From: an uncultured Acidobacteriota bacterium
GTDB taxonomy: Bacteria > Acidobacteriota > Vicinamibacteria > Vicinamibacterales > 2-12-FULL-66-21
Direction: 5' to 3'
DNA length: 64,000 bases
Assembly (NCBI GenBank): GCA_963748295.1
Contig: CAVVIH010000008.1
Coordinates: 244,438-308,437, forward strand
A program made the position numbers and the translations under genes. Below the pieces are notes generated by a model. The model saw only the letters and a list, made by a program, of their open reading frames with translations. It had not been told where the DNA came from and ran no database searches. How positions within the stretch are numbered: the first letter of the stretch is position 1; each line of letters begins with the position of its first letter. Below are positions 1 through 64,000 of this stretch, in pieces.

Positions 1-1246
1 TGCGCACGCCGCCGCTCTGGATCTGCGTCGGCGTCGCGCCGGTGAGGATCGCGAGCGCGATGACGATTGCGGCAAGCGGAATGACCGGGCCGAACGGCAC
101 GGTGAAGGTCGCTGGCCTGACGCGTCCCTCGAATCTCGGGCTGCGGAGGCGCAGCGTCGAGGCGCACGTCGCGACGTAGATCACCAGCCGCGTCATCGCG
201 CTGGCCAGCGCCATCGTCACGAACGTGCCGGATAACGCGAGCACGAGCGAGAAGCTGGAGGTCACGAGAATGGCGGTGACCGGGGTCCGGAACACGGGAT
301 GCACGCGGCCGAACACCGCGGGAAGATCGCCCTGCTCGGCGAGCGCGAACAGGTTCCGCGAGCCCGACAGCGCCTGCCCCATGTTGTTGCCGGTCGTCGA
401 GACAACGGTCCCGGCGGTCATCAGCGCGGCGCCTGCCGCCCCGAGGAAGAGCATCGACGCATCCGCCAGCGGCGTCTTCGACTGCGCCAGGCCGGGCAGC
501 GTTCCGAGCGCGACGACCTGGACGAGAACCAGGATCACCGCGACGCTGACGATGGTCATCACCAGCGCGAATGGAACGGCGGTGCGCGGGTCGCGCGCCT
601 CGCCCGCCGGTACGGGCACGACTTCGTAGCCGCCGAACGCGAACACCAGGAGCAGCGTGCTCGCCGCCAGCTGACCGAATTCCGGGACCGCACCCGGGAC
701 GAGCGCCCGGCCGTCGATGTAGAACAACCCGACCAGCACGAAAATGATGAGCGGCGTGAGCTTGCCGATCGTGAACAGGTTCACCACGACGCTGCTCTGT
801 TTGATCCCGCGTATGTTGATCGCGGCAATCGTGGCGATTACCCCGCTGATCAGCAGCGCGCGTCCCCAACCCACGGCCAATGAGGGCACGTAGCGCCCAA
901 GGTACGTCGCCAGCACGTTGATCACGGACGCCCAGCTTGCGACCCGTGTGAACCACAGCAGCCAGCCGACCTGGAAGGCTGCAAAGCGGCCGAACGCGGC
1001 GCGCGTATACAAATACGGTCCGCCCGTCGCGTCGAACCGGCTGCTCACCTCGGCAAACGAAAGCGCGATCAACAGCGACGCGACGCCGACAGCGCCGACG
1101 AGCCAGGGGCTCCAGGCGCCGACACCGGCGGCGAGGGCCGCGGGCGCGGCGAACACCGCGGCGCCGATGACCTGGTTGATGCCGATCGCCGTGAGGTCCC
1201 AGCGACCGAGCTCACGGCGAAGCGCGGGAGCAGCGGTAGGCACCAC
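1..1246 (-). CDS. APC-family amino acid permease (3' end lies outside the window)
   Basis: This gene is absent from the ORF track because it runs off the left edge. My minus-strand translation from GTG at 1246 (or 1243) gives VPTAAPALRRELGRWDLTAIGINQVIGAAVFAAP...FAFGGYEVVPVPAGEARDPRTAVPFAL..., an uninterrupted frame of more than 410 aa with many hydrophobic segments. An in-frame stop lies just upstream at 1256-1258. The + ORFs 225..629 and 299..883 are Arg/Pro-rich antisense artefacts. Confidence 0.8.
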   Translation of the reverse strand, partial: MVPTAAPALRRELGRWDLTAIGINQVIGAAVFAAPAALAAGVGAWSPWLVGAVGVASLLIALSFAEVSSRFDATGGPYLYTRAAFGRFAAFQVGWLLWFTRVASWASVINVLATYLGRYVPSLAVGWGRALLISGVIATIAAINIRGIKQSSVVVNLFTIGKLTPLIIFVLVGLFYIDGRALVPGAVPEFGQLAASTLLLVFAFGGYEVVPVPAGEARDPRTAVPFALVMTIVSVAVILVLVQVVALGTLPGLAQSKTPLADASMLFLGAAGAALMTAGTVVSTTGNNMGQALSGSRNLFALAEQGDLPAVFGRVHPVFRTPVTAILVTSSFSLVLALSGTFVTMALASAMTRLVIYVATCASTLRLRSPRFEGRVRPATFTVPFGPVIPLAAIVIALAILTGATPTQIQSGGVR

Positions 1247-1268
1247 GAGGTTGTATCATGAACATCGA

Positions 1269-2399
1269 ATGCAGGACACCGATGTCGTCGTCAAACCGCG
1301 CGAGGTGATGCCGACGGGGGCAAGGACGCTGCCGGCGGAGTTCTACGTCAGCCGCGAGTACTTCGATCGGGAAATCGACACGATGTTCCGCCGCATGTGG
1401 ATCTGCGCCGGGCGAGAGGAAGAAATCGCCAATTCCGGCCAGTTCGTCATACGCGAGCTTCCCGGCGACAACATCATCGTGACGCGTGATGCGTCGGGCG
1501 CGGTCAGGGCGTTCCACAATACCTGCCGCCATCGTGGGACGCGGCTTTGTACCGAGGCAACCGGCACCTTCGGCGGCAGCATTCAATGCCCGTATCACGC
1601 ATGGACGTACGGGCTCGACGGGCGGCTGCTCGGCGCACCCCACATGGACGACGTGCCGCATTTCAGGAAAGAGGACTATCCGCTTCGCAAGGTGCATGCG
1701 GACACGTGGGACGGGCACGTCTTCCTCAACCTGAGCGAGTCACCGCGGCGGCTCACCGAGCAGCTCGGCGAGCTGGTTCCGAAGTTCAGATCGTGGCGCA
1801 TGGAAGAACTCCGCCTCGGTCACCGGGTCACCTACGACGTCAAGGCGAACTGGAAGCTCGTGATCCAGAACTACAACGAATGCCTGCACTGTCCTAACCT
1901 TCATCCGGCGCTGAACAAGCTCTCGCATTACCTGAGCGGGGAAAACGAGCCGTTGCGGCCGACCTACATGGGTGGCCGGATGGATCTGCGGCCCGGCGTG
2001 GCGACGTTGTCGATGGACGGGACGTGCCCGCGGGAGTTCCTGCCGGGGCTTCCGGACGACGACCGGCGCCGCGTGTATTACTACGCGATCTTCCCGAACA
2101 TGCTCCTCAGCCTGCACCCGGACTACATGATGGTGCACACGCTGTGGCCGATCGCGCCCGATCGCACGATCAACGTGTGCGAGTGGCACTTCCATCCCGA
2201 GGAGCTGCGGCGTCCGGGGTTCGATGCGTCCGACGCGATCGAGTTCTGGGACATGACGAACCGGCAGGACTGGCACGTCTGCGAGCTCTCGCAGCAAGGG
2301 ATCGCGTCAAAGGGTTACCAGCCCGGGCCGTATTCGAATCGCGAAGATCTTCTGTACGCGTTCGACAGAATGATCGTCGCGCTGCACGCGGGTAGTTAG
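1269..2399 (+). CDS. Rieske [2Fe-2S] oxygenase, alpha-subunit type (GbcA/CntA-like)
   Basis: This is the C-terminal 376 aa of ORF 918..2399, starting at ATG 1269 (MQDTDVVVKPREV...). It carries the Rieske motif CRHRGTRLC-x17-CPYHAW followed by a catalytic domain. The first 117 aa of the tracked ORF are low-complexity and lie antisense to the permease. Confidence 0.85.
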   Translation: MQDTDVVVKPREVMPTGARTLPAEFYVSREYFDREIDTMFRRMWICAGREEEIANSGQFVIRELPGDNIIVTRDASGAVRAFHNTCRHRGTRLCTEATGTFGGSIQCPYHAWTYGLDGRLLGAPHMDDVPHFRKEDYPLRKVHADTWDGHVFLNLSESPRRLTEQLGELVPKFRSWRMEELRLGHRVTYDVKANWKLVIQNYNECLHCPNLHPALNKLSHYLSGENEPLRPTYMGGRMDLRPGVATLSMDGTCPREFLPGLPDDDRRRVYYYAIFPNMLLSLHPDYMMVHTLWPIAPDRTINVCEWHFHPEELRRPGFDASDAIEFWDMTNRQDWHVCELSQQGIASKGYQPGPYSNREDLLYAFDRMIVALHAGS

Positions 2400-3915: not shown

Positions 3916-5504
3916 ATGGGCCACTACGACGTCATCGTCATCGGCGGAGGCCATAACGGCCTCGTCAACGCCGCCTATCTCGCGCGCGCGGGCCGCAAGG
4001 TGCTCGTGGTCGAGCGGCGGCACGTGCTCGGCGGCGCCGCCGTCACCGAGGAAATCTTCCCCGGCTTCAAGTTCTCCGTGTGCTCGTACGTGGTGTCGCT
4101 GCTGCGCCCTGAAATCATCAGGGAGCTCGACCTGCCGCGGCACGGCCTCGAGATTCTGCCGCTCGACGGCACTTTCACGCCGATGCCGAACGGCGACTAT
4201 CTGTGGCGCGTCAACGATCACGCGAAAACGCGCCGCGAGATCGCGCGGCACTCCAGAGTCGACGCCGAGGCCTACGACGAGTACGGCAAGGCGATGGTCG
4301 AGATGGGCCGGTTCGTCAAGCCGATTCTGAACATGACGCCGCCGGATCCGACCTCGCTCGACCCGCGGGGCCTGAAGGATCTCCTCGTCGCTCGGGCGCC
4401 GCTTCCAGGCGCTGCCGGACGAGGACAAGTACAACCAGATCCAACTGATGACGATGAGCGCCGTCGACTTCCTCGATCAATGGTTCGAGACCGACGTGCT
4501 CAAGGCGACGATGTCGGCGTCGGGGATCATCGGCACGTTCCTCGGCGTCCGCTCGCCCGGCACGGCCTACGTGCTGCTGCATCACTACATGGGTGAGATC
4601 GACGGCGCGTTCCGATCGTGGGGATTGTCGCGGGGCGGCACCGGCGCGATCTCGAACGCGATCGGCGACGCCGCGCGCGAGGCGGGGGCCGAGATCCGCA
4701 CCAAGACCGCGGTGTCCAGGATCATCGTGAAGGACGGCACGGCGGTCGGCGTCGTGCTCGACAACGGCGACTACATCACCGCGAATGTCGTGTCGTCCAG
4801 CGTGGATCCGAACCTGACCTTCATCAAGATGGTCGGCGAGGATCACCTGTCGGACGAGTTCGCCGCCGAAATCCGCCGCTACAAGTTCCGCGGCTCCTCC
4901 GGCAAGGTGAACCTGGCGCTCGACGCTCTTCCGGATTTCAAGGCCCTGCCGGGCCCCGGCGCCCATCTGCGCGGCGCGATCTCGATTTCGCCGAGCGTCG
5001 AGTACATGGAGCGCGCCTACGACGAAGCGAAGTACGGCCGCTACTCGCGCCGGCCGTACATCGACATGGTGATTCCGACCCTGACCGATCCGTCGGTCGC
5101 GCCGCCCGGCAAGCACGTGATGTCCTGCTTCGTGCAGTACGCGCCCTACCACCTGAAAGAGGGCAACTGGGATGATCAGCGGGACGCGTTTGGCGACACG
5201 GTGATCGACACGATCTCGGAGTACGCGCCGAACATCAAGGACATCATCCTCCACCGGCAGGTGCTGACCCCGCTCGACATCGAGCGCGATTTCGGGCTCA
5301 CCGAAGGGAACATCTTCCAGGGAGAGCTGACGCTCGAGCAGCTGTTCTTCCTCAGGCCGGCGCCGGGCTGGGCGCAATACCGGACGCCGGTGCGCAACCT
5401 TTATATGTGCGGATCGGCGACCCATCCGGGAGGCGGCATCATGGGCGCGCCCGGCACGGAACGCCGCGATGCGCATCCTCAAAGAGACCGGGAGCAGGAG
5501 CTAG
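3916..5504 (+). pseudogene. NAD(P)/FAD-dependent oxidoreductase, phytoene-desaturase (CrtI) family; two frameshifts as sequenced
   Basis: The N-terminus is MGHYDVIVIGGGHNGL (GxGxxG). Homology runs from ORF 3916..4596 into ORF 4448..5806 with a shift near 4385-4400 (...GLKDLL / SLGRRFQALPDEDKYNQIQLMTMSAVDFL). It then moves to a third frame near 5452-5460 (GGGIMGAPG / RNAAMRILKETGSRS*), ending at TAG 5502-5504. The paralog's C-terminus GGGVTAGPGQNAAREIIKQLRST supports this reconstruction. Confidence 0.8.
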
Positions 5505-5507
5505 CCG

Positions 5508-7083
5508 ATGCTTCCAGTCGTCATCATCGGCGGAGGCCACAACGGGCTGACTGCCGCCTACTACCTGGCCAAGGCCGGCCACAAGCCGCTCGTCATCGAA
5601 GGCCGCCCGATCGTGGGCGGCGCGGCCGTCACCGAAGAATTTGCGCCCGGCTTCCGCGGTCCGACGCTCGCGCACGCGACGGGACCGCTTCGCGAGTCGG
5701 TCGTCCGCGACATGGGGCTGCGGCGCAGCGTGGAGTTCGTCACGCCCGACACGCGCCTCGTGACGCTGTCCGCCGATGGCCGCGCGCTCGTGTTCTCGAC
5801 AGATGAAGCGCGGACCACCGAAGCGATCCGCGGCTTCTCGGCCGCCGACGCGGCGAAGTATCCGGAATTCCGCGAGACGTTTGCGCGGCTTGGCGGCTTC
5901 CTGTCACACCTTCTCGAGACCACGCCGCCGTCGCTCGACGGCCCCGCCGCGGGCGAGCTCTGGGAACTGTTGAAGGTCGGCCGCCGTTTTCGCGCACTCG
6001 GCAAGAAGGACGGATTCCGTCTGCTTCGATGGATGCCGATGGCGGTGGCCGATCTGGTGGCCGAGTGACTTCGCGGCCGATCCGCTGCAGGCCGCCATCG
6101 CCGCCCGGGGCATCTTCGGAACCGCCCAGGGTCCATGGTCGGCGGGAACCGGCGCCGTGCTCATGATGAACGCCGCGGCCGATCCGGTTCCCGGCGGCAG
6201 CTCGGTGTTCGTCAAAGGCGGTCCCGGCGCGCTGACGGCGGCAATGGCCGACGCCGCACGGCGCGCGGGAGCGGAGATCCGCACGGGGACCGGCGTGTCG
6301 CACATACTCGCGCGCGACGGCAAGGCCACCGGCGTGGTGCTCAGCGATGGAACGGAGATCACCGCGAGAGCCGTCATCTCGAACGTCGACCCGCGTCAGA
6401 CGTTTCTGCGCCTCGTCGATCCGATGGATCTCGATCCGACGTTCCTCACCCGCATTCGCAACTACCGCACGCCAGGCACGAGCTCGAAGATCAACCTCGC
6501 ACTGGGCGCGCTGCCGGTCTTTCCGGCGATCCCGAACCCGGCCGACCTCAGCGGGCGCGTGCAGATCGGATACAGCGTCGACTACATCGAGAAAGCCTTC
6601 GATGCGTCGAAGTACGGGGAAATCCCCGCGGAACCGTATCTGGACGTCACGTTCCCCACGCTTCACGATCCTTCGCTTGCGCCAGCGGGTCAGCACGTGA
6701 TGTCGATCTACGTTCAGTACACGCCGTACAAGCTCACGCCCGGCTACCGGTGGAGCGATCGCCGCTCCGACCTGCTCGGCACCGTCATGCGCGTGCTCGA
6801 ACGGTATGCGCCGGGAATTGCGAACCTGGTCGCGCATCACCAGGTCGTCACCCCGGCGGATCTCGAGGAGACCTTCGGGCTGACCGGCGGACACATCCTG
6901 CACGGTGAACCGTCGCTCGATCAGTTGTTCACGATGCGCCCTGTTCTCGGCTGGGCCCAGTATCGGACGCCGCTGCGCGATCTCTACCTCTGTGGCGCGG
7001 GCACGCATCCAGGCGGAGGCGTCACGGCAGGTCCGGGCCAGAACGCCGCGCGCGAGATCATCAAGCAGCTCAGGTCAACATAG
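5508..7083 (+). pseudogene. NAD(P)/FAD-dependent oxidoreductase, CrtI family (tandem paralog); one frameshift as sequenced
   Basis: ORF 5508..6068 (MLPVVIIGGGHNGL...) continues in ORF 6157..7083. The second frame, read upstream, gives SDFAADPLQAAIAARGIFGTAQGPWSAGTGAVLMMNAAADP, so the shift lies at about 6055-6068. The gene starts 4 nt after the upstream paralog's reconstructed stop. Confidence 0.8.
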
Positions 7084-20012: not shown

Positions 20013-20306
20013 ATGGCACCGACGAAGGAACTCCCCGGCGAAGCGCTCGGACTGGTTGAAACGCGCGGCCTCGTCGGCATGATCGAAGCCGCCGATGCGA
20101 TGGTCAAGGCGGCAAACGTCGTGTTCGTCGGGTGGCAGAAGGTCGACGCCGGGCTGGTGACCGCCATCGTGCGCGGCGATGTCGCCTCGGTGAAAGCGGC
20201 GACCGACGCCGGCGCCGCCGCGGCGCGGCGCGTCGGAGAGCTCGTCGGAGTACACGTGATCCCGCGTCCCGCCGACGGTCTCGACAAAATCTTCCCGATC
20301 GGCTGA
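20013..20306 (+). CDS. Bacterial microcompartment shell protein, BMC-H (Pfam00936, PduA/EutM/CcmK type)
   Basis: The 97-aa ORF reads [76 protein letters not shown], collinear with canonical BMC-H hexamer proteins. It lies 15 nt downstream of the D-TA gene on the same strand. Confidence 0.9.
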
Positions 20307-21084: not shown

Positions 21085-21126
21085 ATCGCAAGAATATGTC
21101 AGGCGCCCACCTTCTGCGCCTGTCTC

Positions 21127-21242
21127 GCCGAAGCCTCTGGCGGAGGCGGACCGAAAGCCACTGGCGAAGGCGGAGCCTGCCGCGCCGAAGCCACTGGCGA
21201 AGGCGGAGCCTGCCGCGCCGAAGCCACTGGCGAAGGCGGGCC
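21127..21242. repeat. 33-bp tandem repeat, about 3.5 copies
   Basis: The unit gaagccactggcgaaggcggagcctgccgcgcc is exact at 21187-21219. A near-exact copy precedes it (starting about 21153), a truncated copy follows at 21220-21242, and a degenerate leading copy lies at 21127-21152. The repeat is intergenic between PCD (-) and TetR (+). Confidence 0.8.
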
Positions 21243-21974: not shown

Positions 21975-23195
21975 ATGAATCGCGTTCGGACTCATCTTCT
22001 GGCCGCGGCCGCGATCGGCATCGCGGCGATTGGCACCGCGGCGTGTTCCACTCAGGCGAAGGGCTCCGCGGATCCCGCGGCGTCGGCGCCGGAACCGCTC
22101 GCCATCACGACGGCCGTCGTCGAATCGCGGCCGCTCGATCGCTTTCTGCAGGTGACCGGCTCGCTGACCGCCGACGAACAGGCGGAAGTCAGCGCCGAAA
22201 CCGCCGGCCGCGTCGTCGCGACGCCGGTCGAGCGCGGCACCAGGGTCACCGAAGGAACGCTGCTCGTTCGCATCTCGGCATCGGAAACCTCGGCGCAGCT
22301 CGAGGAGGCCGAGGCGAATGCGGCGCAGATCGAAGCGCGGCTCGGGCTCGCGCCGGGAGCGCCATTCAACCCCGACGCGGTTCCCGATGTGATGAACGCC
22401 AAGGCGAACCTTCAGCTCGCCGAGGCGGAGTTCAACCGCATCAAGTCGCTGCTCGACCAGAAGGTCGTCTCGCAAAGCGAGTACGACCAGCGGCTCACGC
22501 AGGTCGAAGCGGCGCGCCAGCAGCACCAGGCGGCGCGGAACGCGGCCGAACAGTCGTACCGCTCGCTGCAGGCGGCGCGCGCGCGGATCACGCTGGCCAA
22601 GAAATCCGTCGCCGACACGCTCGTGCGGGCGCCGTTCGCGGGCGTCGTCGCGGAGCGGCTGGTGAGCGCCGGCGACTACGTCTCGCGCGGCACGAAAGTC
22701 GCCACCGTCGTCCGGGTGGATCCGCTTCGCGTCGAGCTGACGATTCCCGAGCAGTCCGTTTCCCTCGTCAAGATGGGACAGCTCGTTCGACTGAGCGTCG
22801 ACGCGTATCCCGGCAAGGAGTTCACGGCGACGATCCGATTCGTTTCGCCGTCGCTGCGATCCGATCAGCGTGCGCTGACCGTCGAAGCGGTCACCGCGAA
22901 CCCGGATGGGCTGCTGAAGCCGGGACTTTTCGCAACCGCGCTCATCAAGCAGACGATCTCGGCGCCCGGCCTGCTGGTGCCTGCCACGGCGGTTGAAACC
23001 GTCGCCGGGACCTCGCGGGTGTTCGTCGTCAAGAACGACCGCATCGAGGAACGCATCGTGACGCTTGGCGAGAAGGTCGATTCACTCGTCGAGCTGACCA
23101 GCGGCGTCGCCGTCGACGAGGTCGTCGCCGCCGATCCGAGAGGCCGCCTGGTCGACGGGCGCGTGGTCAAGTCAGAAGTACGAAGTCAGAAGTAA
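21975..23195 (+). CDS. Efflux RND transporter periplasmic adaptor subunit (MFP)
   Basis: ATG at 21975 within ORF 21951..23195 gives [24 protein letters not shown], which is lipoprotein-like. The protein has coiled-coil, lipoyl and beta-barrel segments typical of HlyD/AcrA-like adaptors. Confidence 0.85.
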
Positions 23196-23215: not shown

Positions 23216-26200
23216 ATGCAATGGCTCGCTTCCATATCCGTCCGTCGTCCGGTTTTCGCGACGGTCATCACGCTGTCCCTCACGGTCATCGGCGCGTTCG
23301 CGTTCTCGCGGCTCGGCCTCGACCGCTTTCCGAAGGTGGACTTCCCCACCGTCGTCGTTACCACGGTCCTTCCGGGCGCGGCGCCTGAAGAGATCGAAAC
23401 CGAGGTCACCGACAAGATCGAGGAAGCCGTCAACACCATCAGCGGGATCGACGAGCTGCGATCGAATTCGTCGGAAGGTGTCTCCCAGGTCATCATCTCG
23501 TTCCTGCTCGAGAAGGACGGCGACATCGCGGCGCAGGAAGTTCGCGATCGTGTGAATCGCGTGCTGCCGCTGCTGCCGCGGACGATCGAACAGCCCCAAG
23601 TGGAGAGGTTCGACCCGGATTCCGCTCCGGTGCTGACGCTGGCGGTCTCGGCCGACAAGCCGGTACGCGACATCACCGAGTACGCGGACAAGACGCTTCG
23701 GCGTCAGCTCGAGAGCGTCAGCGGCGTCGGCCAGGTGGTGGTCGTCGGCGGCCGCTCCCGCCAGATCAACATCGACCTCGATGCGGCGCGCCTTCGTGCG
23801 TACAACCTCACGGTGACCGACGTCACGCGCGCGCTGCAGACGCAGAACTCGGAGATTCCGGGCGGACGCGTCGAGCAGGGCGGCACGTCGATGACGCTGC
23901 GCACGCGCGGACGCGTCGAGTCGGTCGCCGCGTTCGGCGACATCGTCGTCGAGGCGCGCCAAGGGCATCCGATTCTCCTCAAGGACGTCGCGCGCATCGA
24001 AGACGGCATGGCCCGGCCGGAGCGAAGCGCCAACCTGAATGGCGAGCCGACGGTGCTGCTCACCGTCCGCCGGCAGTCGGGTACGAACACCGTGCAGGTG
24101 GTGGACTCAGTCAAGGAGCGGCTCGCCGACGTCGCGCCGCTGGCGCCGCCAGGCTACGAGATTCGCGTCGTCCGCGATCTCTCCGAGTTCATCAAGGCGT
24201 CGATCGAGAGCGTCGAAGAGCATCTCATCGTCGGCTCGATCCTCGCGTCGGTCGTGGTTTTCGTGTTCCTCTGGAACTTCCGCTCGACCATCATCGCGGC
24301 GATCGCAATCCCGACGTCGATCATCGCGACGTTCGGCCTCATCTGGTACCAGGGCTTCACGCTCAACTCGATGACCATGCTCGCGCTGACGCTGGCGGTC
24401 GGCATCGTCATCGACGACGCCATCGTCGTGCTGGAGAACATCTACCGGTTCGTCGAGGAAAAAGGACAGACGCCGGCGCAGGCGGCGATCGAGGCGACGC
24501 GCGAAATCGGCCTCGCGGTCATGGCGACGACGCTGTCGCTCGTGGCGATCTTCGTGCCGGTCGGCTTCATGGGAGGGATCGTCGGACGGTTCATGACGAG
24601 CTTCGGCTTCACGATGTCGTTTGCGATTCTGGTGTCGCTCCTCGTCAGCTTCACGCTGACGCCGATGCTGTGCTCGAAGTGGATCAAACCGAGGTCCGCT
24701 GAGGGCAACAACAAGCATTCGTCGAGGGAATCCCGGCTCTTCAGCGCAATGGATTCCGGCTACACGGCAATCCTGCGGTGGGCGCTCGGGCACCGGCTGA
24801 TCATGGCCGGCGTTGCCGCGCTCGTGCTGCTCAGCAGCGTTCCGCTGTTCATGCTGGCGAACAAGAACTTCCTGCCGAACGACGACCAGTCGGAGTTCGA
24901 GATCGGGCTGCGGGCGCCTGAAGGCACGAGCCTCGAGGCGACCGAGATCATTTCGAACCGCATCGCGAGCCGTGTCCAGCAGCTCGACGGGGTGGAATAC
25001 ACACTCGTCAGCGTCGCCGACGATCCCGCGAAGACCCAGAACATCGGGACGATTTACGTTCGCCTGAAGCCGGTGGAGAGCCGCAGCAAGGATCAATTCG
25101 AGCTGATGAACGAAGTTCGGACCGAAATCCTGTCGAAGACTGAGCTCGAGAACCTGCGGACCGGCGTGCGGGCGGTCGCCACGATCGGCGGCGGCGGCAA
25201 CCAGAACTCCGAGATTCAGTTCACGATCAGCGGTCCGGACCTCCGGCTGCTGGAGCAGTATGCGAACAACGTGATCGCCGAGGCGCGCAAGGAGCCTGGC
25301 GTCGTGGACCTCGACACGTCGCTCAACGTCGGCAAGCCGGAGCTGTCGGTGCACATCGATCGTCTCAAGGCGGCCGATCTGGGGGTGAAGGTTTCGGATG
25401 CCGCGGATGCGCTGCGCCTGCTCGTCGGCGGCGATCAGGTGACGACCTACAACGAGGCTGGCGAGCAGTACGAAGTGCACGTCCGCGCGCTCGAGGGAGA
25501 CCGGCGGACTGCGGAAGCGATCCGCCAGCTCACCGTGCCGTCGACCAGGCTTGGGAGCGTACCGCTCGAGAACCTCGCCAGCATGACGCGCGGGACCGCG
25601 CCATCGGAGATCAACCGGCTGAACCGCCAGCGGCAGGTCACCGTGTTCGCCGGTCTGCTGCAGGGCTTCTCGCAGGTGCCGGCGATGGACGCCATGCAGC
25701 GGGCGGCCGACAATCTCGGGATGGGTCCGGGATACTCGACCCGGTTCGCCGGACGGTCACGCGAGCTCGGCCGTGCCGCGGCGAACTTCCTGATCGCCTT
25801 CGGCTTGTCGCTCGTATTCATGTACTTGATCCTGGCTGCGCAGTTCGAATCGTGGATACATCCGATCACGATCCTGCTGTCGCTGCCGCTGACATTGCCG
25901 TTCGCGCTGCTGTCCATCATCATCACCGGACAGTCGCTGAACATCTTTTCCGCACTGGGGTTGCTCGTGTTGTTTGGAGTTGTGAAGAAGAACTCGATTC
26001 TGCAGATCGATCATGCGAATCAGCTTCGGGAGCAAGGGATGGAACGAGATGCCGCAATTCTACAGGCCAGCCGCGATCGGCTCCGGCCAATCCTCATGAC
26101 CACGCTCGCGTTCGTCGCCGGGATGGTGCCGCTCGTGCTGTCGAGCGGCGTCGGATCGGCAACCAACCGCGCGATCGGGTTCGTCATCATCGGCGGCCAG

Positions 26201-27916
26201 TCGCTGGTGCTGCTGCTGACGCTGGTCGCCACGCCGGTCGCCTACTCGCTGCTGGATCAAGCGTCGAAGGTCCGCTTCTGGAGATGGACCCGTTCCCGCC
26301 GGACCGCGGCGGCAACCGCCGCGCTTCTGGCGCTGGTGATCCCGGTCGCGACGGCGAACGCGCAGACGGCAACGGCGCCGGCGGCGCCGCAGCGGCCAGT
26401 TCCGGTCGCTCAGGCGCCTGGCGATCAGGTGGTCCGCATCACGCGTGACGATGCGATCCGGCTGGCAATGGAGAACAATCCGGATCTCGCGGTGAGCCGC
26501 TACGATCCGGCCATCAGTCAGGCGCAGCTCGCCGCCGCACGCGGCGTCTACATGCCGGTCGTGGAGACCTCCGTGCAGCGCAACAGTCAGCTGCAGCCGC
26601 CGACGAATCTCTTCGCCGGAACCGAGGGGCTACAGACCGACATCTGGTCGTCGACTGTCGCGCTCAATCAGCTGATGCCGTGGGGCGGCGGACAATACTC
26701 GGTCGGCTGGGACTCGTCTCGGACCACGACCGACAGCCTGATCTCGAGCTTCGATCCATCCTTGAACTCGCGGCTGTCGCTGGCGTTTTCTCAGCCGCTG
26801 CTGCGCAGTTTCAAAATCGACCCGGCGCGGGCACAGGTCGAGCTCTCGACGCGCAACGTCGAAATCGCCGATACGCGTCTGCGCGAGTCGCAGGTGACGA
26901 CCGGCGCGAGCGCGGAGCAGGGCTACTGGGCCTACGTCGCGGCGCTCGCGCTGCTCGACGTGCAGCAGCGGTCGCTCGATCTGGCGCTCGAGCTCGAGCG
27001 CACGAACCGCGCGCGGGTGGACGTCGGTCAGGCGCCGCCGCTCGACCTGGTCGCGGCGCGCGCCGAAGTGGCGCAGCGCCGCGAGAACCTGATCATCGCG
27101 CGCACCGCCGCCCGTCAGGCCGAGGACAATCTGCGAACGGTCATCTTCGACCCGTCACGCGCCGATTACTGGAACCTCCGGCTCGAACCGGCGGATCGTG
27201 TGCCGGCGGTCAGCCAGGCGCCCGACGTCGATGCTGCCGTGCGGCGCGCGCTCGCCGAGCGGACCGATCTGATTCGCGCGCGCAAGGAGATCCAGAACAC
27301 CGAAACGAACATCACGCTGTCGAAGAACGAGACGCTTCCTGACCTGCGGCTGCAGGCCAATTACCTGACCGACGCCGCCGGCGGCACGCGGCTGCTTCGC
27401 GAGGGCGGCTTCCCTGGAACGATCGTGGGCCAGCAGGTCACCGGCTTCGGCAGCACGCTCGGTCAGCTGCTGAGCGCCGACTTTCCGACCTGGACGCTGG
27501 GGGTGACGTTCAGCTATCCGCTCGGCAACAGCACCGCGGAAGCGAATCTCGCCCGCGCGCGGCTCGAACGCGATCAGGCGAACGCGCGGCTGAAGACGCT
27601 GGAGGTGGGCACCGTGCGTGAAGTGCGCCAGGCCGCGTGGCGCCTCGAGCAGAACCAGCAGCGCATCGAAACGACGCAGCTCGCCCGCGAGCTCGCCGAG
27701 CAGCGGCTCGACGCGGAGCAGAAGCGGTTCGAGGTCGGCATGTCGACGAGCTTCCTCGTGATCCAGGCGCAGCGCGATCTCGCCGTCGCCCGCAACCAGG
27801 AGCTGCTGGCGCTGCTCGACACGCAGTTGTCGGTCGTCAATTTCGAGACCGTGCAGCAGGTGTCCGGGGTCGGCCCGATCCTCGGCGGCGCGCCGGTCGG
27901 CGTCGTGCTGCGGTAA
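23216..27916 (+). CDS. RND efflux permease (AcrB-like, about aa 1-1022) read through into a TolC-like outer membrane factor (about aa 1024-1566), one ORF as sequenced
   Basis: The 1566-aa ORF begins as a typical 12-TM RND permease ([20 protein letters not shown]...). After ...[14 protein letters not shown] it continues as an OMF with its own signal-like segment [23 protein letters not shown] and paired TolC repeats. The junction at 26279-26290 looks like an ATGA stop/start overlap with one extra G (see findings). Confidence 0.85.
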
Positions 27917-29065
27917 GGGTGACGGGCAGGCCTTAAGGCCTGCCTCGTTGTCCGTCCATTCGAATCGCGTGGGGTGGAACGGCTTCGACGCCGCGCCCCA
28001 CGCTCCGTCCAGCACTCCCTCGGCGACCATAGCGGCCGTGATTGGCGCCAGCAGAATGCCATTGCGGTAATGCCCGGTCGCGAACACGACACCCGGCAGC
28101 CGCTCCGAGGGCCCGATGATCGGCAGGCCGTCCGATGACGCCGGGCGAAGCCCGACCCGCGCTTCGCGAAACGTCGACCGCCAGGCGCCGGGAAGCAAGC
28201 CACAGAGCGCATCCAGCAGATCCCGCACACCGGCCGCTGTCGTACGCTCGTCGAATCCGACGTCCTCGACGGTGGCGCCCACGAGGACACTGCCGTTCTC
28301 CCAGGGAACGACGTAGCAGTCGGCACCCCAGATGATCCGCTGCGGCGGCACACCATCCCACTCGATCCGCAGCAGCTGTCCTCGTATCGGCCGGACGGCC
28401 TGCGCCGCGGGCTCGTCGAGTCCCAGCTGCGACAACCAGCTGCCGGCGGCAACGACGACGCGGTCGGCGGTCCACGTCATCCCGTCCTCTGAAACCACCT
28501 CGAGCCTGGATGCGCGTTCGCGGATTCCAACGATGCGGCGCCCGGTCTCGATGTCCGCGCCGTGACGCAGGGCACTCCACGTGAGCGCTTCCGCAAGCTG
28601 CGAAGCCCCAACGTAGCCGTGCGAGCGGATCAGCAGCGCGCCCTGTGTGTCGGTTGGCAACGTCGGCTCGACATCGGGAACGTCCGAGGGTTCGATCCAC
28701 GCGAGCGATGCCTCGTCGGGCAGAAGTCCGGCAGCCGCCTGGAGTCGCGCGGCTTCGTCGCCATCGAGGGCAACTTCAAGAGTGCCGCAGCGCCGGTATT
28801 CGACGCCGACGCCCGCATCCTGCCGCACGCCGGCGATGAATTCATCGAACAAGGCGAGACTGCGGACGGCGAGATCGAGCAATGGGCCGGGCCGCGGCGC
28901 TTCGATGTAGGGCGCCAGGACGCCCGCGGACGCCTGCGTCGCGCCCGCGCCAACACTACGGGCATCGAAGATGCGCACGCGCGCACCGCGCCGCGCGAGC
29001 TGGTGTGCGATTGAGCAGCCGATGATGCCGGCACCCACGATGATGACGTCGGCCGCGTCGCTCAT
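27155..29065 (-). CDS. thiO: Glycine-oxidase (ThiO)-like FAD-dependent oxidoreductase; homology ends near 27940, and the remaining roughly 260 codons are an improbable extension
   Basis: The N-terminus is [27 protein letters not shown] and a ThiO-like [11 protein letters not shown] lies near aa 330. Recognisable sequence ends about aa 370-375 (...[10 protein letters not shown]). The open frame then crosses the hairpin at 27924-27945 and runs 760 nt antisense through the OMF coding region. Confidence 0.7.
27924..27945. terminator. GC-rich hairpin between convergent genes (candidate bidirectional terminator)
   Basis: GGGCAGGCC-TTAA-GGCCTGCCT gives an 8-9 bp stem. It lies 8 nt after the OMF TAA (27914-27916), at the expected 3' end of the ThiO-like gene. 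No clear U-tract follows. Confidence 0.45.
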
Positions 29066-40561: not shown

Positions 40562-40591
40562 CTTCTGCGGCTTCTCCACACGCACGCGCCA

Positions 40592-42996: not shown

Positions 42997-44198
42997 CGAT
43001 CGCAAACAGCGTGATGGCGCTCGAGACCGATCACCTGCTGCAGGTGTACCGGCGCGGGCAGGTCGTGTTCGAGCGCGGCAAGGGATGCCGCCTGTTCGAC
43101 GCGGACGGCCGCGGCTATCTCGATCTGATCTCGGGAGTCGGCGTCGCGTCGCTCGGGCACGCACATCCGCGTCTCGCCGCCGCCATTGCCGAACAGGCGT
43201 CGACGCTGCTGCACACGTCCAACCTGTTCTTCCACCCGCTTCAGGGTGAGGTGGCGGCCCGGCTCGCGGCGCTGAGCGGCCTGCCACGCGCGTTCTTCAC
43301 GAACAGCGGAACGGAAGCGGTCGAAGCGTGCCTGAAATTCGCGCGCCGGGTACTGGCACACGCAGAAGGCGCCGCGCAGCGGCTTCGTCGCCTTCGAGCA
43401 CGCCTTTCACGGCCGAACGATGGGATCGCTCTCGGTGACGTGGGACGAGCACTACCGCGCGCCGTTCGCGCCGCTGCTGGGGATGTCCAGTGGGTGTCCA
43501 CCGACAACCCCGACGCGCTTCGCGCGGCAGTTACCGATCGGACAGCCGCGATCGTCGTCGAGCCGCTGCAGGGCGAGGGCGGGGTTCGTCCGCTGAGCGC
43601 GGCGATGGCCGCGGCGATCCGCGAGTCATGCGCACGGACCGGCGCGCTGCTGATCACCGACGAGGTGCAGAGCGGGCTCGGACGCACCGGGCGGCCGTTC
43701 TATGCCGAGGCGCTCGGCCTGACGCCCGATCTGATGGCGCTCGGCAAGGCGCTCGGCGCCGGCGTGCCAATCGGCGCCGCGATGTTCAGCGAGCGCGTCG
43801 CCTCGTCTGCCTCGTTTGGCGATCACGGCAGCACGTATGGCGGCAACCTGCTGGCGTGCCGTGCGGCGCTCGTGTTCCTGGAGGAGCTGGTGGATCGGGA
43901 TCTGATCTCGAACGTCGCGAAGTCCGGACAGCAGTTCGAATCGGCGCTGCAGCGGATCGCCGCCAAATACCCGCACGTTCTTGCGGTCCGGGGCGCGGGC
44001 CTGATCTGGGGCATCGAGCTGGATCGCCCGGCAGCGCCCGTGGTGGAGGCGGCGCTCAAGCTTGGATTGCTGGTGAATCGCACGGCCGATACGGTGGTGC
44101 GCCTGCTGCCGCCGTTCATCATCAGCTCGTCGGAAATCAGCGAGGGTGTAGCCCTGCTGGAACAGGCCATCGGGTCGGTGGCGGGAGGTGCGGCTTGA
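42993..44198 (+). CDS. argD: Acetylornithine aminotransferase; the ORF is intact but codons covering about 43351-43482 are out of the true frame
   Basis: Class-III aminotransferase segments flank the corrupted stretch, including the PLP-lysine [11 protein letters not shown]. Between the G-runs at 43348-43350 and 43479-43482, only the +1 frame gives the conserved [44 protein letters not shown]. Confidence 0.9.
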
Positions 44199-46041: not shown

Positions 46042-46982
46042 ATGATTCACGTTACCGACCCAACGCGATTCCTGTCGGTTCTGGACTTTGGTCCGGCGGA
46101 ACTGTCGGCGTGTCTGTCGCTTGCGGCCGAGCTGAAGGCGGCGCGCGCGGTGCGCCGCGCGCACGAGCGTCCGCTCACCGGACAGCACGTCGCGCTGCTC
46201 TTCGAGAAGCCCTCGCTGCGGACGCGGTCCACCTTCCAGATCGCGGTTCGCGAGCTCGGCGGCGACGTCATCGAGCCGCCGCAGGACGTCGCGCTCGGCG
46301 GACGCGAGTCAATCGCCGACGTCGCCAGGAACCTGGAGCGGTGGGTCTCGATCGCCGTCGTCAGGACCTTCGCCCAGGCGCGGCTCGAGGAGTTCGCCAA
46401 TGCGGCGCCGCGGCTGCGCGTGGTGAACGCGCTGACCGACGAGGAGCATCCGTGCCAGGCGCTGGCGGATGCGCTCACGCTCGTCGAGCGGTTCGGCGAG
46501 CTGAACGATCGCACCATCGCCTTCGTCGGCGACGGCAACAACGTCGCCAGGTCGCTGGCGCAGGCCGTCGTCATGCTCGGCGGCCACGTGCGTATTGCGT
46601 CTCCTGCGGGATACGAGCTGCCGCACGCGTCGGTGACGGAGATCCGCAGCTGCGCCGTCAACGGCGGAACGATCGAGGTCACGGATGACGCGGCGGAGGC
46701 CGCCGGCGGGGCCGATGCCGTCTACACGGACGTCTGGACCTCGATGGGCCAGGAGTCGGAAACCGCGACGCGCCACCAGCTCTTCGCGCCCTATCAGGTG
46801 AACTCGACGCTGATGTCGCTCGCGGCTCCGGGCGCGCTGTTCATGCACTGCCTGCCCGCGCATCGCGGCGACGAGGTCACCGACGAGGTGATCGATTCGC
46901 CGGCGTCGGTGGTCTTCGATCAGGCCGAGAACCGCCTGCACGCTCAGAAGGCGCTTCTGGCGATGCTCGCCGGCGGGTGTGA
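46042..46982 (+). CDS. argF: Ornithine carbamoyltransferase; the stop is reconstructed at 46980-46982, and as sequenced the frame reads on to 47085
   Basis: ATG at 46042 follows GAGGA. The motifs are SLRTRSTF, HPCQALAD and HCLPAHRGDEV. Homology ends at ...ALLAMLAGG. Adding one G to the G-run 46975-46977 gives GGV-TGA. Confidence 0.85.
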
Positions 46983-46998: not shown

Positions 46999-48016
46999 AT
47001 GCGCCAGGCCGTCATTCCCCGGTACGGCCCCCCCGACGTGTTTGCGATCCGCGAAGCGTCCGATCCCGTTCCGGGCGCCGGGTGACCTGCGCGTGCGCGT
47101 CAGGGCAGCCGGCGTCAACTACGCCGACATCCTCTCCAGACTAGGGTTGTATCCCGACGCGCCGAAGCCTCCGGTCGTCGTCGGCTACGAGATCGCGGGC
47201 TACGTCGACGCGGCGGGCGCCGGGGTTGCTGGCTTCGCTCCCGGCGATCGTATTGTCGCGCTCACCAAATTCGGCGGCTACTCCGACGTCGTCGTCGTTC
47301 CGGCGGCGCATGCGTTCCGCGTGCCGGTGGATCTGAGCGACGCCGAAGCGGCGGCGATCCCGGTCAATTACCTGACCGCAGCACTGGCGCTCTATCGGAT
47401 GGCCGCGCTGAGCTCGGGCGAAACGGTGCTCATTCACAACGCCGGCGGCGGCGTCGGCATCGCCGCCGCGCAGCTCGCCCGGCTGCGGCGCGCCACGGTG
47501 ATCGGCACGGCGTCGGCGTTCAAGCATGCGGCGCTGCGCAGCTTCGGCATCGAGCACGTGATCGATTATCACCACGCCGACGTTCCCGAGGAGGTGCGGC
47601 GAATCACGAAAGGACGCGGCGTCGACGTCATCCTCGATCCGATCGGCGGGCGCAGCTTCATGTCGAGCTATCGCCTGCTCGCGCCGCTCGGCCGACTGAT
47701 CGTCTTCGGACTGTCGTCAGCGGTCAGCGGAGAACAGCGCAACCTGTGGAGCGCGTTTCGGGCGTGGATGTCGACACCGCGATTCGACCCGATGTCGCTC
47801 ATCAACCGCAATCGCGGGGTATTCGGCCTGCATCTCGGCCACCTGTGGGAAGAGCAGCGTCAGCTGGCGCCGCTCATGACGATGATTCTCAGCGAGATCG
47901 CCGCCGAGAGACTCAAACCGGTTGTCGCAAAGACGTTCCCGCTCGAACGTGTCGCCGACGCCCACCGCTTCATTCAGAAACGCCTGAACATCGGCAAAGT
48001 GGTGCTCACGACATAA
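46999..48016 (+). pseudogene. Zinc-binding alcohol dehydrogenase-family quinone oxidoreductase; one frameshift as sequenced
   Basis: ATG at 46999 (MRQAVIPRYGPPDVFAIREASDPVPGAG) lies in the argF frame. After the G-run 47080-47082 the sequence continues in ORF 46979..48016 (DLRVRVRAAGVNYADILSRLGLYP...NAGGGVGIAAAQLA...KVVLTT*). Confidence 0.8.
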
Positions 48017-50354: not shown

Positions 50355-50447
50355 TGCGTTCGACCTCCGTCTGGCGACGCCGGGGAGTCTACAACGTTTC
50401 TTTGCGTTTTCGGGCGGCGGTTGGTAAGGTTCCGCGCGGAGAGGCCT

Positions 50448-56708: not shown

Positions 56709-59700
56709 TTACTTCCGCGCGTCCGACGTCGTCGTGATCTTCGTCGGCGGCTTCGGCTTGGCGCGCTCCTTCAGGTGCTCCTCCATCTTGAGGCGCGGCA
56801 CGCCCTTCTTCATCCAGTCCGGCGCCGGCGCCCCCTTCAGGTGGTGGTCGAAGAACTCCAGCATGCGGACGGTGTAGTCCCGCTGGTTCGACGGCTTGCG
56901 CAGGCCGTGGTTCTCCCCGACGTACTCGAGCATGATCACCGGCTTCTGCAGGCGGCGGAGCGTGTTGTAGTACTCGACGCCTTGCGTGAAGTCGACGGCG
57001 CCGTCGCGATCGTTGTGCAGGATCATCAGCGGCGTCTTGACGTTCTTCGCGAAGAACACCGGCGAGTTGCGGTAGTACGCGTCCCAGTTGTCCCAGTAGC
57101 CGCCGCGGAAGCGGCCCTGGCTGCTCTCGAAGATCGCCCCGTTGCCGCCGCCGGTGTTCTTGTAGATCAGGCTGTACATGCTGATCATGTTCGTCAGCGG
57201 CGCGCCGGCGACGGCCGCGGCGAACATGTCGGTCTGCGTCACGAGGAACGACGTCTGATAGCCGCCCCACGAGTGGCCGGTCAGGCCGACCCGCTTCGCG
57301 TCGACGATGCCGGTGGCGATCGCCGCCTTCAGCGCCGGCACCACGCACCACACCGCTGACATGCCGGGATCGTTCACCTTGTAGGTGATGTCGGGAAGCA
57401 GCACGGCGTAGCCGTTGCTCGTGTACACCGATCGATGGAACCCGTTCGCGCCGGGATTCGCGAACTGGTTCGCGCCCTGCGACATCTTCTCGTAGATGTT
57501 GACGATCGTCGGGTAGCTCTTCCCCTTCTCGTATCCGGCGGGCAGGAACAGCGCCGCCTGGAGCTTGTCACCCTTGTCGCTGGTGTAGTTGATCAGCATC
57601 GACCCTTCGGTCCATGCATAGCGGGTCACCTGCGGACGCTGATCGGTCAGCCTTACCGGGTTCTTCAACGAGCTGTCGGCAAGGTAGAAGTCGTTCGGCT
57701 CGGTTGCCGTCGATTTGGTGAACACGAGCTGGTCGGCGCCCTTCGGCTTCATCAGCGTGCCGAAGCTCGCGTCGGACCAGGTCAGCGTCTCGACGCCCGC
57801 CTTGCCGGGACCCACCCGGGCGATGCCCGCCTTCTTGGTCCACTCGCCGTATGCCTGGAAATAGAGCGGCTTCGACAGATCGATGCCCTTGCCGCGATCC
57901 TGCGGCGGCTCGAGCGCGAAGCGGCGCGTGTAGCGGATCTGATCCTTGCGGCCGTTGCCCGTCAGATTGACGGCCTGCCCGCCAGACACCGGCACCTGCC
58001 AGATGTCCCAGTTGTCGTGCAGCAGGACCGCCTTGCTGTCGCTCGCCCATCCGATCACGCCGGTCGGCGGCTTGGCGACGTTGTGATCGTCTTCGGTGTC
58101 GACGAAGGATGCCGGGACGTTCAGCGTGATGTTGCGCGGCTCGCCGCCGGCCATCGGATGCACGAAGTAATGGCCGTCCTCGTACACCAGGAACGATTCA
58201 CCATCGGGGGAGATGCCGTTGAACCATCGCACCCGCTTCAGCGCGAGCCGGCGTGTGCCGGTCGCCATGTCGATGACATGGATGTCCTGGAAGCGGCGTC
58301 CGTCGAGGTTGCCGAACAGCTCGTACTCGCGCGCGTCCTGGCCAATCGCCCACCGCTCGGTCCGTCCGACCTGAACCGATCGGACGTCCTCGTCCGCGAG
58401 CCGGATGAACTTCTTTGGCTGCACGCGGTATTCAGCGAGGTAGCTGAAGGAGCGATCGGCGCCTTCCTGGACTTCCTGCTGCGACTGCAGACGCGAATCG
58501 AGCCAGTGCCACAGCACCAGGTCCACGCGCTCATCCGCATTCGGCGCATCGTTGTTGTTGTTGGTCGGAGCGGGACGGTCGTCGCCTTCGCGCTGGTCGC
58601 CGCTCTCGGTGTCGCGAGCGCCGGCGGCGGCATCGCGTGGACGCGGGATGTGGATGCCGAACAGGATCGCATCGAGTTTGTCGGTCCACTGCGGCGCGCG
58701 GTTGCCGCTGATCGTCATGCCCTCGGGGAAGCTCTTGTCGGTCGCTGGGTCGTACACCGTCTTTTGCGGCGCATTGCCCGCGACCGCCGTGAAGCCGACG
58801 ACGGCGTAGCGGCGATCGCGGAGGCTGCGGTCGTCGCGTTCCCTTCAGGACCGCGAGCGCGTCGCCCTTCTCGGTCCAGGTTGGCCTCTCATAAACAGCA
58901 GTGCCGCTGTCGAGCACCGAGACCGTTCCGCGATCCATGTCGCGCAGCTGGATGCCGTTGCCCGCTTTGTCCTGAGCGTCGATCGTCCACGCGAGCAGCT
59001 TGCCGTCACGCGAGAACGCGAAATCGCCGACGTTGCCGACGCTCAACTCGTGGCCGGTGGCCAGCTCGCGCAGAATCAGATCGGTCCCGCGCGGCCGATC
59101 GCTCGGTCCGCCCGCCGCCGGAGCAGCGCCGCCGCCACCGCGTCCTCCGCCGCCCGCCGCGGGGGCCGCGCCTTCGCCGCCGCCGGGTGTCGTCTGCGCC
59201 GGATACCGGCTCAGCGCGATCCACGTGGACGAGTCGCCGGAGAACGCAAACCGCCGGATCTTCGCGGTACTCATGCTTCTCCCCCGTCGCCAGGTTCACG
59301 ATCGTCACGCCGTTCTGAACCGGGCGGCGCTGACGACGCAGCCGCTGCGCCTCGGCGCGCTTCGGGTAGGTCGTGAACGCCACCCACTTCGAGTCCTCGG
59401 AGAAGTCGAGCGAGGCTCCTCCGACGCCCGCCGCCGCGGCCGGCCCGCCACCCGCTGCACCACCGCCACCGCCACCCGGCTCGCCGATCTCGAACGTCGT
59501 CTCTTTGCCCGTGCGCGTCGAGCGGACGACGACCTGCGCGTCCCCCTCGCCGGGACCGAGGCGATACGCGAACCACTGCCCGTCGTTCGAGACGGTCGTC
59601 GCGGCAATCGCCTTCCAGTCGATGATGTCCTGCAGCTCGATCGGTCGCCTGGACGCGGATTGCTGCATGCTCGCCGGGGGACCGGCGAGCGGCATCAACG

Positions 59701-62175: not shown

Positions 62176-62272
62176 GCATGCTCCGACTGGAAAGCGTACG
62201 CGGACGGCGTCCTACCTCGAGACTTTGGGCCACCACTACAATTCCTGTGCCGCGAGGAGGTAAGCTGACGGC

Positions 62273-64000
62273 ATGCATCGAAGAATCCTCGCGATTGTCC
62301 TCGCCGTCTCCATTCTGCCGCAGACCTTCGCCGCGCAGCAGGATGCAGGCGTCCCGGCGAAGGACGGCGCAGTCGTCTGCGTCTCGGCGCCGGCCTGCGA
62401 CGCGGGGGCGGCGATCCTCGCCAAAGGCGGCAATGCCGTCGACGCGGCCGTCGCAACCGCATTCGCGCTTGCCGTCACGCATCCCGCGGCGGGGAACATC
62501 GGCGGAGGCGGTTTCATGATCGTGAGGACGCCGTCCGGCGCCGTGACGACATTCGACTATCGCGAGAAGGCGCCGCTGAAATCCACTCGGACGATGTATC
62601 TGGGAGAGGATGGAAAGATCAATCGCAGCCTGACTGCCGCGGGCTACCTCGCGCCTGGCGTGCCCGGGACCGTCCGTGGACTGGAGCTCGCCCACAAGAA
62701 GTTCGGCAAGCTGCCCTGGAAGGACGTGGTGACGCCGTCACTGATGCTCGCGGAAGGCGGCTTCGTGATCTCGGCGGCGCTCGCGCGTGAACTCAATCGC
62801 GAGCTGCAGAGGATGACCGCGTTCCCGGCATCCATCGCCGCTTATGGCAAGGCCGGCGGCGGAGAGTGGAAGGAGGGCGACACGCTCGTGCTCGCCGATC
62901 TGGGCAAGACACTCCGCGCGATCGCGGACGGCGGCGCCGATGCCTTCTACAAGGGGCCGATCGCCGATCTGATCGCGGCGGACATGAAGGCGAATGGCGG
63001 ACTGATCTCGAAAGAGGATCTCGCGGCGTATCGGGCGAAGGAACGCGCGCCGGTCAAGGGCACCTATCGCGGCTACGAGATCGTGTCGATGCCGCCGCCC
63101 AGCTCCGGCGGCATTGCGCTCGTGCAGATGCTCAATATCCTCGAGCAGTTCGATCTGAAGTCGAAGGGGCAGTCGTCCGCCGAAGCGATCCACCTCCAGG
63201 TCGAGGCGATGCGGCGCGCCTACCTCGATCGCGCCCGCCACCTCGGCGATCCTGATTTCGTCGACGTGCCGGTTGCGCGCCTGACGTCGAAGGTTTACGC
63301 GAAGACGCTCGCCGCCGGCATCGATCAGCAGAAGGCGTCCCGCAGCGCCGATCTCGGCCGCGATATCGTCGCCACGACGCAGCCTGCCGAACCGGACGAA
63401 ACCACGCACTTCTCGGTGATCGATCGAAACGGAATGGCGGTGACGAGCACCTACACGCTCGAAGGCGGATATGGCTCGCACGTCGTCGTCAAGGGCGCCG
63501 GGTTCATCCTGAACAACGAGATGGGGGACTTCAACAAGAAGCCTGGCGAAACGAACGTCACCGGCGACATCGGCACGGCCGCCAACCTGATCGATCCCGG
63601 CAAGCGCATGCTCAGCTCGATGACGCCGACGATGGTGCTGAAGGATGGAAAACTCGTTCTGCTCACTGGCTCTCCTGGAGGCCGCACGATCATCAACACC
63701 GTACTGTGCGTGGTGCTCGGCGTCACCGACTTCGGACTGAACGGGAGGCAGGCGGTCGACGCCGCCCGACTGCATCATCAATGGCTGCCCGACACCGTTC
63801 GTCTCGAACAGAACGGCGCGTCGGCTGAAGTGCTGGCGGCGCTGAAGAGCATGGGCCACGACGCCTCGGCTCAGGGCCGGCAGGGAGACGCGCACAGCAT
63901 CTGGATAGCGCCCGACGGCACGCCTTACGGCGTCAACGACAAGCGCACGCCCGACTCGAAGGCCTCCGTGCCTGGCGGTTTGACACCAACCGGTTCCGGA
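62273..64000 (+). CDS. ggt: Gamma-glutamyltransferase (3' end lies outside the window)
   Basis: This gene is absent from the ORF track because it runs off the right edge. My translation from ATG 62273, which follows GAGGAGG, gives MHRRILAIVLAVSILPQTFA...AGNIGGGGFM...PDETTHFSVIDRNGMAVTSTYTLEGGYGS...LTGSPGGRTIIN. The nucleophile-Thr autoprocessing site is present. The frame is open for all 576 codons to the window end. Confidence 0.9.
   Translation, partial: MHRRILAIVLAVSILPQTFAAQQDAGVPAKDGAVVCVSAPACDAGAAILAKGGNAVDAAVATAFALAVTHPAAGNIGGGGFMIVRTPSGAVTTFDYREKAPLKSTRTMYLGEDGKINRSLTAAGYLAPGVPGTVRGLELAHKKFGKLPWKDVVTPSLMLAEGGFVISAALARELNRELQRMTAFPASIAAYGKAGGGEWKEGDTLVLADLGKTLRAIADGGADAFYKGPIADLIAADMKANGGLISKEDLAAYRAKERAPVKGTYRGYEIVSMPPPSSGGIALVQMLNILEQFDLKSKGQSSAEAIHLQVEAMRRAYLDRARHLGDPDFVDVPVARLTSKVYAKTLAAGIDQQKASRSADLGRDIVATTQPAEPDETTHFSVIDRNGMAVTSTYTLEGGYGSHVVVKGAGFILNNEMGDFNKKPGETNVTGDIGTAANLIDPGKRMLSSMTPTMVLKDGKLVLLTGSPGGRTIINTVLCVVLGVTDFGLNGRQAVDAARLHHQWLPDTVRLEQNGASAEVLAALKSMGHDASAQGRQGDAHSIWIAPDGTPYGVNDKRTPDSKASVPGGLTPTGSG

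Follow-up and report, generated by a model that had tools for sequence, protein, structure and literature searches.

The 64,000-nt stretch of DNA analyzed here (the window; positions 244,438 to 308,437 of contig CAVVIH010000008.1, assembly GCA_963748295.1, from an uncultured Acidobacteriota bacterium of the order Vicinamibacterales) contains 14 single-base insertions or deletions (indels) that break the reading frames of 11 conserved genes. How might so many frameshifts have arisen within so short a region? They are very probably a consensus artefact of long-read assembly, the genes of the organism itself being most likely intact; the frame breaks are real in the sequence and almost certainly not in the organism. 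The frameshift finding holds no new biology and is an ordinary assembly artefact. A first-pass annotation of the window had counted at least 15 one-base indels in conserved genes and listed 16 positions. Fourteen of these positions proved to be real frame breaks, with an indel at or within a few bases of each, but the other two (26286 and 46975) are of another kind and are described below. Ten of the in-gene events are insertions and four are deletions.

The frame breaks were recognized by independent means. In three-frame translations, conserved protein sequence changes frame at the positions given in the first-pass annotation. A codon-usage Viterbi path, trained on the long intact genes of the window and independent of the alignments, switches frame at 4389, 5505, 6063, 13503, 32754, 43341, 43482, 45849, 47058, 49827, 58836 and 59265. 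A frameshift-aware protein-to-DNA aligner, run with proteins from 80 related loci and a codon-usage gene filter, gave consistent one-base events in the YihY, OMP, argD (two events), argJ, QOR and S9 peptidase 1 genes and no such event in the other genes between 29 and 56 kb. Between 1 and 13 kb, where the syntenic locus L088 and database homologs were used, it gave exactly three events (4387, 5456–59 and 6066–69) and the neighboring genes were intact. Alignments and the aligner together revealed no further frameshift in the remaining genes of the window; an apparent frame event at 40608 was rejected as false, because the tblastn screen that produced it had mixed in antisense open reading frames (ORFs) and gene boundaries. 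Exact positions were assigned by nucleotide alignment to same-species contigs, except for 4387, 5457 and 6067, which were placed by means of a related species (L088) and the frameshift-aware aligner.

The same-species comparison set comprises 20 contigs from more than a dozen samples, which span positions 10,009 to 64,000 of the window. They were drawn from JGI metagenomes, with the addition of three ENA contigs whose k141 names, in the style of MEGAHIT, would be typical of a short-read assembler, one ENA contig of 138 kb that is syntenic with the window from position 10,009 to its end, and one Logan contig. The window is 98.3–98.6% identical to these contigs at the nucleotide level and they are 98.5–99.4% identical among themselves; the window is therefore simply another strain. 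Protein queries gave a similar range: the repaired S9 peptidase 3 (1011 amino acids, aa) recovered intact 1011-aa proteins at 97–98% identity, a PLP decarboxylase had many matches at 97–99%, and the BMC shell protein of the window occurs with identical sequence in at least 22 contigs. For 11 of the 14 indels the same-species contigs allow a check: no contig that covers such a site (1–10 per site) has the indel. The indels that do separate strains inside genes are multiples of three. The only one-base difference that the window shares with other contigs is in a G run at 34058 (GG or GGG), where six of nine same-species contigs match the window; the site is apparently situated upstream of the start of a TrbI-like gene. 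This is a real polymorphism, in contrast to the indels unique to the window.

The first three sites lie in two FAD oxidoreductase genes on the plus strand. FAD oxidoreductase 1 carries an extra G at 4387 (CTC[G]TCG, the inserted base being bracketed here and below; frame +0 to +1), which five of five reference proteins put at 4387–4393 and whose removal restores DLLSLGRRF, as in the homologs. It also carries an extra C at 5457 (GGCA[C]GGAAC; +1 to +2), the repair of which yields GAPGRNAA and a protein of 528 aa, equal to P0241. FAD oxidoreductase 2 has an extra G at 6067 (GAGT[G]ACTTC; +2 to +0). The support for these three sites is exclusively cross-species (L088, 84% nucleotide identity, and intact homologs of 528 aa), because a protein-based scan with the repaired FAD oxidoreductase 2 sequence yielded no same-species contig and relatives of at most 72% identity. 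Nor did a DNA pattern across 5457 match any of the metagenome contigs scanned, and an exact look-up of the GNAT gene returned only contigs of 1.1–1.6 kb that do not include the sites. The best match to FAD oxidoreductase 1 has cluster members that are about 90% identical, and these were rejected as conspecifics.

The other 11 indels were placed against same-species contigs. On the plus strand, the VWA-TPR gene lacks a C at 13505 (CCCC in relatives, CCC in the window) that is present in four of four contigs, and its repaired product of 928 aa equals that of L170. The YihY/BrkB gene has an extra G at 32773 (CATC[G]GTAC; absent in 7/7 contigs) and attains the ortholog size of 378 aa on repair. 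The OMP beta-barrel gene lacks a G at 37378, so that ATTTCGATTTCG reads ATTTCATTTCG; ten of ten contigs have the G, and the repaired protein of 211 aa equals that of L084. In argD, an extra G at 43348 (GCC[G]GGTAC; absent in 5/5) throws the next 131 nt, which include the FHGRT motif, out of frame, and the frame is regained through a missing base at 43479–43482 (GGGGG or GGGTG in relatives, GGGG in the window; four of four contigs). Against TIGR00707, for which the NCBIfam cut-off is 410 bits, ArgD scores 448.6 bits repaired versus 370.8 as written. The argJ gene lacks a C at 45857 (CCCC to CCC; three of three contigs and eight of eight reference proteins), which leaves its final 52 residues out of frame; repaired ArgJ covers positions 1–405 of the 405 in TIGR00120, and as written it ends at about 330–352. 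The QOR gene contains an extra C at 47079 (GCGC[C]GGG; one contig and five of five reference proteins) and has the ortholog size of 338 aa when repaired. On the minus strand, a ThiO-like gene, whose orthologs encode 376 aa ending in HPTRFEGRIPRQA and a stop, has an extra A near its C-terminus at 27958 (GTCC[A]TTCG; absent in 3/3). S9 peptidase 1 has an extra A at 49863 (GCGG[A]TAAA; one contig and eight of eight reference proteins; 748 aa repaired, as in orthologs). S9 peptidase 3 has two extra G residues, at 58836 (GTC[G]CGTT; absent in 3/3, one of them a k141 contig) and 59267 (GCG[G]TAC; absent in 3/3), and on repair its 1011 aa equal P0001–P0004.

A single one-base repair at each site thus yields 11 stop-free proteins of 528, 524, 928, 376, 378, 211, 401, 405, 338, 748 and 1011 aa (from FAD oxidoreductase 1 to S9 peptidase 3), and ten of the 11 are exactly of ortholog size; the remaining one, FAD oxidoreductase 2, has 524 aa versus 522 in its only reference, which belongs to a different species. 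Four further single bases unique to the window lie between genes. One is an extra A at 40591 in the 11-nt argR–argG spacer (absent in 7/7 contigs), one is at 27917, and two are extra bases at 50381 and 55255, for which contig L081 is the sole basis.

The density of frame breaks in related genomes differs by sequencing platform. When one uniform screening method was applied to the window and to loci from metagenome-assembled genomes (MAGs) of relatives, the Nanopore-only Microflora Danica MAG loci contained 61 frame breaks in 337 kb (1.81 per 10 kb), distributed over 16 of 20 loci and all at different positions, whereas the short-read MAG loci contained two in 593 kb (0.03 per 10 kb; binomial p = 1e-24). 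Other long-contig MAG loci contained one in 166 kb (0.06 per 10 kb), and the window, by this screen, has 1.28 per 10 kb. For the Microflora Danica MAGs, assembly by Flye was followed by a single Medaka round and involved no short reads; the authors mention possible Nanopore errors at low coverage (PMC12313526). Nanopore bins under about 40x coverage are reported to need polishing (PMC9262707). A copy of a window protein that is 100% identical and lies on a 744-kb NCBI/ENA contig, a size usual for long-read assemblies, suggests a long-read origin for the window. Among the public Nanopore-only MAGs of this clade (L001–L080, e.g., L013, L030 and L074) we noted up to eight or nine frame breaks per 21-kb locus, and the apparently fused ORFs argJ–argF (L002) and argD–GNAT (L021) may have the same artefact origin.

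We propose the following course of events. The window would derive from a long-read MAG of a soil Vicinamibacterales species, presumably sequenced by Nanopore only and left unpolished. A consensus called at what was probably modest coverage, without polishing by accurate reads, would have added or dropped bases about once per 4 kb, and each such error inside a gene would have shifted its reading frame. The deletions would represent the contraction of short C or G runs, and the insertions would have fallen largely regardless of runs.

Several points weigh against this interpretation. First, the comparison contigs represent other strains (1.4–1.7% nucleotide divergence) and not the same clone; because of this, very recent strain-specific frameshifts are possible in principle. 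Second, the sites at 4387, 5457 and 6067 rest on a different species (84% nucleotide identity) and more than 100 intact homologs, and those at 47079 and 49863, together with a 61-nt gap at the end of argF, rest on one same-species contig, which is apparently a 9x long-read contig. Third, in-gene insertions outnumber deletions (10 versus 4) and lie mostly outside homopolymers, contrary to the textbook pattern for Nanopore, and the platform of the source assembly is itself something that we infer. Fourth, the 61-nt gap and a second gap of about 55 nt are atypical of consensus errors and may be real in the strain.

Within the artefact interpretation, a particular source of error can be considered, namely a GTAC methylation motif that disturbs Nanopore base-calling, or a consensus drawn from mixed strains; we regard this as unlikely. 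Of 19 one-base differences, four (6067, 32773, 43348 and 59267) have a GTAC no more than 7 nt away, versus 0.39 expected from the 116 copies of GTAC in the window, and none of 2000 shuffles equaled this count; a fifth case, apparently 45857, lies just beyond the 7-nt limit. This proximity hints at a methylation-linked base-calling problem. However, the motif was picked post hoc on a set comprising the 18 window-unique indels and the shared 34058 polymorphism, the excess falls to p ~0.1 after correction for 136 motif classes, and the Nanopore-only relatives did not reproduce it (5 observed, 2.5 expected; p = 0.10). As for mixed strains, those compared are polymorphic (G or T) at 43479, exactly where the window drops a base, but most of the sites show no polymorphism among the available strains.

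Classical homopolymer-length miscalls, of the sort produced by 454, Ion Torrent or older Nanopore chemistries, had been the mechanism favored by the first-pass annotation, which described the sites as lying mostly at short G/C runs. This account fits the deletions: three of the four fall in runs of at least four bases, which contain 2.1% of all bases (p = 3.6e-5), those at 13505 and 45857 being C4 to C3 and that at 43479 lying in or adjoining a G run. Two insertions, at 43348 and 27917, likewise convert GG to GGG. The insertions as a whole do not follow it. Only six of the 14 (10 in genes and 4 between them) copy a neighboring base, versus 53% by chance, and eight differ from both neighbors (4387, 5457, 6067, 27958, 40591, 49863, 55255 and 58836); most fall outside any run, e.g., those at 5457, 49863 and 58836. 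The runs to which three sites had been pinned (47080–82, 49860–62 and 58841–43) are merely the nearest runs and do not contain the altered base, and the remark that the sites coincide with G/C runs of 2–4 says little, since a G/C run of at least two is present in 78% of random 10-nt intervals of the window. The window is nearly devoid of long homopolymers, those of six or more making up less than 0.1% of its bases, and the frame breaks of the Nanopore-only relatives show no enrichment near G/C runs of at least four (5 observed, 5.8 expected). We therefore consider this mechanism unlikely as an account of the whole set.

Could the frameshifts instead be real, the strain being at the onset of mass gene inactivation, as in early genome decay or in an indel-prone mutator lineage (e.g., one deficient in mismatch repair), with no secondary decay yet? 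The strain difference of the comparison contigs leaves room for this, and the two larger gaps at gene ends would be a structural peculiarity of the window as well. Against it stands, apart from the absence of all 11 checkable indels from the other strains, the nature of the lesions, which are indels throughout; there is no nonsense codon, and no secondary damage is left after the one-base repairs. In comparison with a same-species contig, the ratio of nonsynonymous to synonymous substitution rates (dN/dS), computed in the original frame with the GGT row left out, is 0.143 downstream of the shifts (3,095 codons). The upstream value is 0.152, and that of intact genes about 0.1. The downstream value is not near 1; the shifted parts are still under purifying selection, which has not been relaxed. 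Furthermore, argD, argJ and argF, genes of one biosynthetic pathway, are all affected together in a free-living soil lineage, a point that the first-pass annotation had already raised against real decay. Finally, the same density of breaks recurs, at other sites, in Nanopore-only relatives and almost never in short-read ones. On the evidence of the same-species contigs, the platform control, dN/dS and the exact ortholog sizes after repair, the earlier preference for assembly or sequencing error over decay is upheld, and real pseudogenisation is highly improbable. Programmed ribosomal frameshifting or transcriptional slippage, for which the only support is that the frame changes lie in otherwise intact genes, is refuted by the intact same-species genes and has a vanishingly small chance of being correct, given that the sites are unconserved even within the species, that both +1 and −1 changes occur, that the sites show neither a slippery heptamer nor an A/T run and that 11 unrelated genes are involved.

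Two of the 16 listed positions call for other explanations. The first is the supposed shift at 26286–26287, between RND and OMF sequences. In the window, a single ORF of 1566 aa (23216–27916, plus strand) joins an AcrB-type RND permease, matched by Pfam ACR_tran over residues 5–1013, to a TolC-type outer-membrane factor, where the OEP match extends to residue 1544; from the RND C-terminus the frame stays open through a signal-peptide-like stretch into the OMF domain. The same arrangement is found in two other Vicinamibacterales species (L016 and L019), and all same-species contigs that span the gene are continuous here (1566 aa, ACR_tran and OEP). This is a natural, conserved gene fusion and not a frameshift. 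The joining stretch resembles a signal peptide or a 13th transmembrane helix and has an AXA cleavage motif followed by Q; the fusion protein may undergo cleavage once exported. General reviews were all that a search of the literature for natural RND–OMF fusions gave.

The second is a one-base indel that had been assigned to argF at 46975–46977. What we found is a 61-nt gap on the plus strand (46971–46972, after the argF codons for ...AMLA) relative to L081, the sole same-species contig that covers the site and has these bases. The TGA stop is lost in this gap along with most of the spacer, so that argF continues in frame through a linker of nine residues (GGCDTLRSF) to the QOR start (46999). 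The missing stretch is flanked by imperfect direct repeats (CTCGCC/CTCGGC). A second gap affects the ThiO-like gene, for which a lost stop near 27940 had been reported. The stop is indeed lost, but the disruption has two causes. One is the extra A at 27958; the other, seen in alignment with L084, L085 and L173, is that about 55 nt are missing between the stops of the OMF and ThiO-like genes (27917–27944, with one extra G at 27917). In the same-species contigs, two near-identical hairpins (GCAGGCC-loop-GGCCTGC) lie between the convergent RND–OMF and ThiO-like genes, and the ThiO-like TGA is situated in the loop of the second. In the window the two palindromic hairpins have collapsed to one, with the loop TTAA instead of TTCA, and the TGA is lost because it sits in the loop so changed. 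L176 has a duplication at this region and L084 a degenerate first copy; together with the single hairpin of the window, these indicate that this REP-like spot is structurally variable among strains. If only the two larger gaps were real, ArgF and QOR would be fused in frame in this strain, and read-through would give its ThiO-like protein a long tail.

The gene content of the window, which has a G+C content of 67%, is ordinary. It includes an arginine cluster (argR, argC, argB, argD, a GNAT gene, argJ and argF, plus argG and argH), several S9 peptidases and amidohydrolases, the two FAD oxidoreductases, which are CrtI-like, VWA and TPR proteins, and the RND efflux system. Its ArgC is at most 80% identical to the ArgC proteins of uncultured Vicinamibacterales (Acidobacteriota) MAGs, the nearest being Microflora Danica long-read MAGs. 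The BMC (microcompartment shell) domain gene is a lone one of 97 aa (20013–20306, plus strand) that adjoins a D-serine-dehydratase-like gene; there are no further shell genes in its vicinity. Repeat copy number differs among strains at 21100–21215, where a repeat of about 33 nt precedes a TetR gene, and at 23178–23190, where a GAAGTAA-type heptamer is repeated before the RND gene.

The practical consequence is that this contig would give wrong results to anyone who used it to call genes, judge pathway completeness or count pseudogenes. As written, arginine synthesis seems broken, and several peptidases and oxidoreductases seem split. The same caution extends to many Nanopore-only MAGs, which are the closest public relatives and have about 60 times the frame breaks of short-read MAGs of the same clade. 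Two by-products of this study are useful: the conserved RND–OMF fusion gene, and a simple platform control by which such calls can be judged.

Pseudogenes accumulate in decaying genomes, for example in those of recently host-restricted bacteria, and the window resembles such genomes in having many frameshifted conserved genes within a short stretch. It differs from them in that it has no nonsense mutations and no relaxed selection, in that its lesions occur in no conspecific, and in that it belongs to a free-living soil lineage in which one biosynthetic pathway has been affected several times. Homopolymer run-length errors, as made by flow-based or older pore chemistries, are matched by the deletions at 13505, 45857 and 43479, where C or G runs are contracted, but not by the insertions, which show no preference for runs. 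The Nanopore literature, too, stresses homopolymer indels, unlike the window, whose platform is a presumed one and most of whose insertions lie outside homopolymers. In other respects the window is like the frameshift errors of Nanopore-only assemblies, which are the target of IDEEL scoring, proovframe and short-read polishing: one-base indels occur about once per few kb, genes are split into adjacent ORFs in different frames, a one-base repair restores their full length, and the density of errors follows platform and coverage rather than biology (PMC9262707; bioRxiv 10.1101/2021.08.23.457338).

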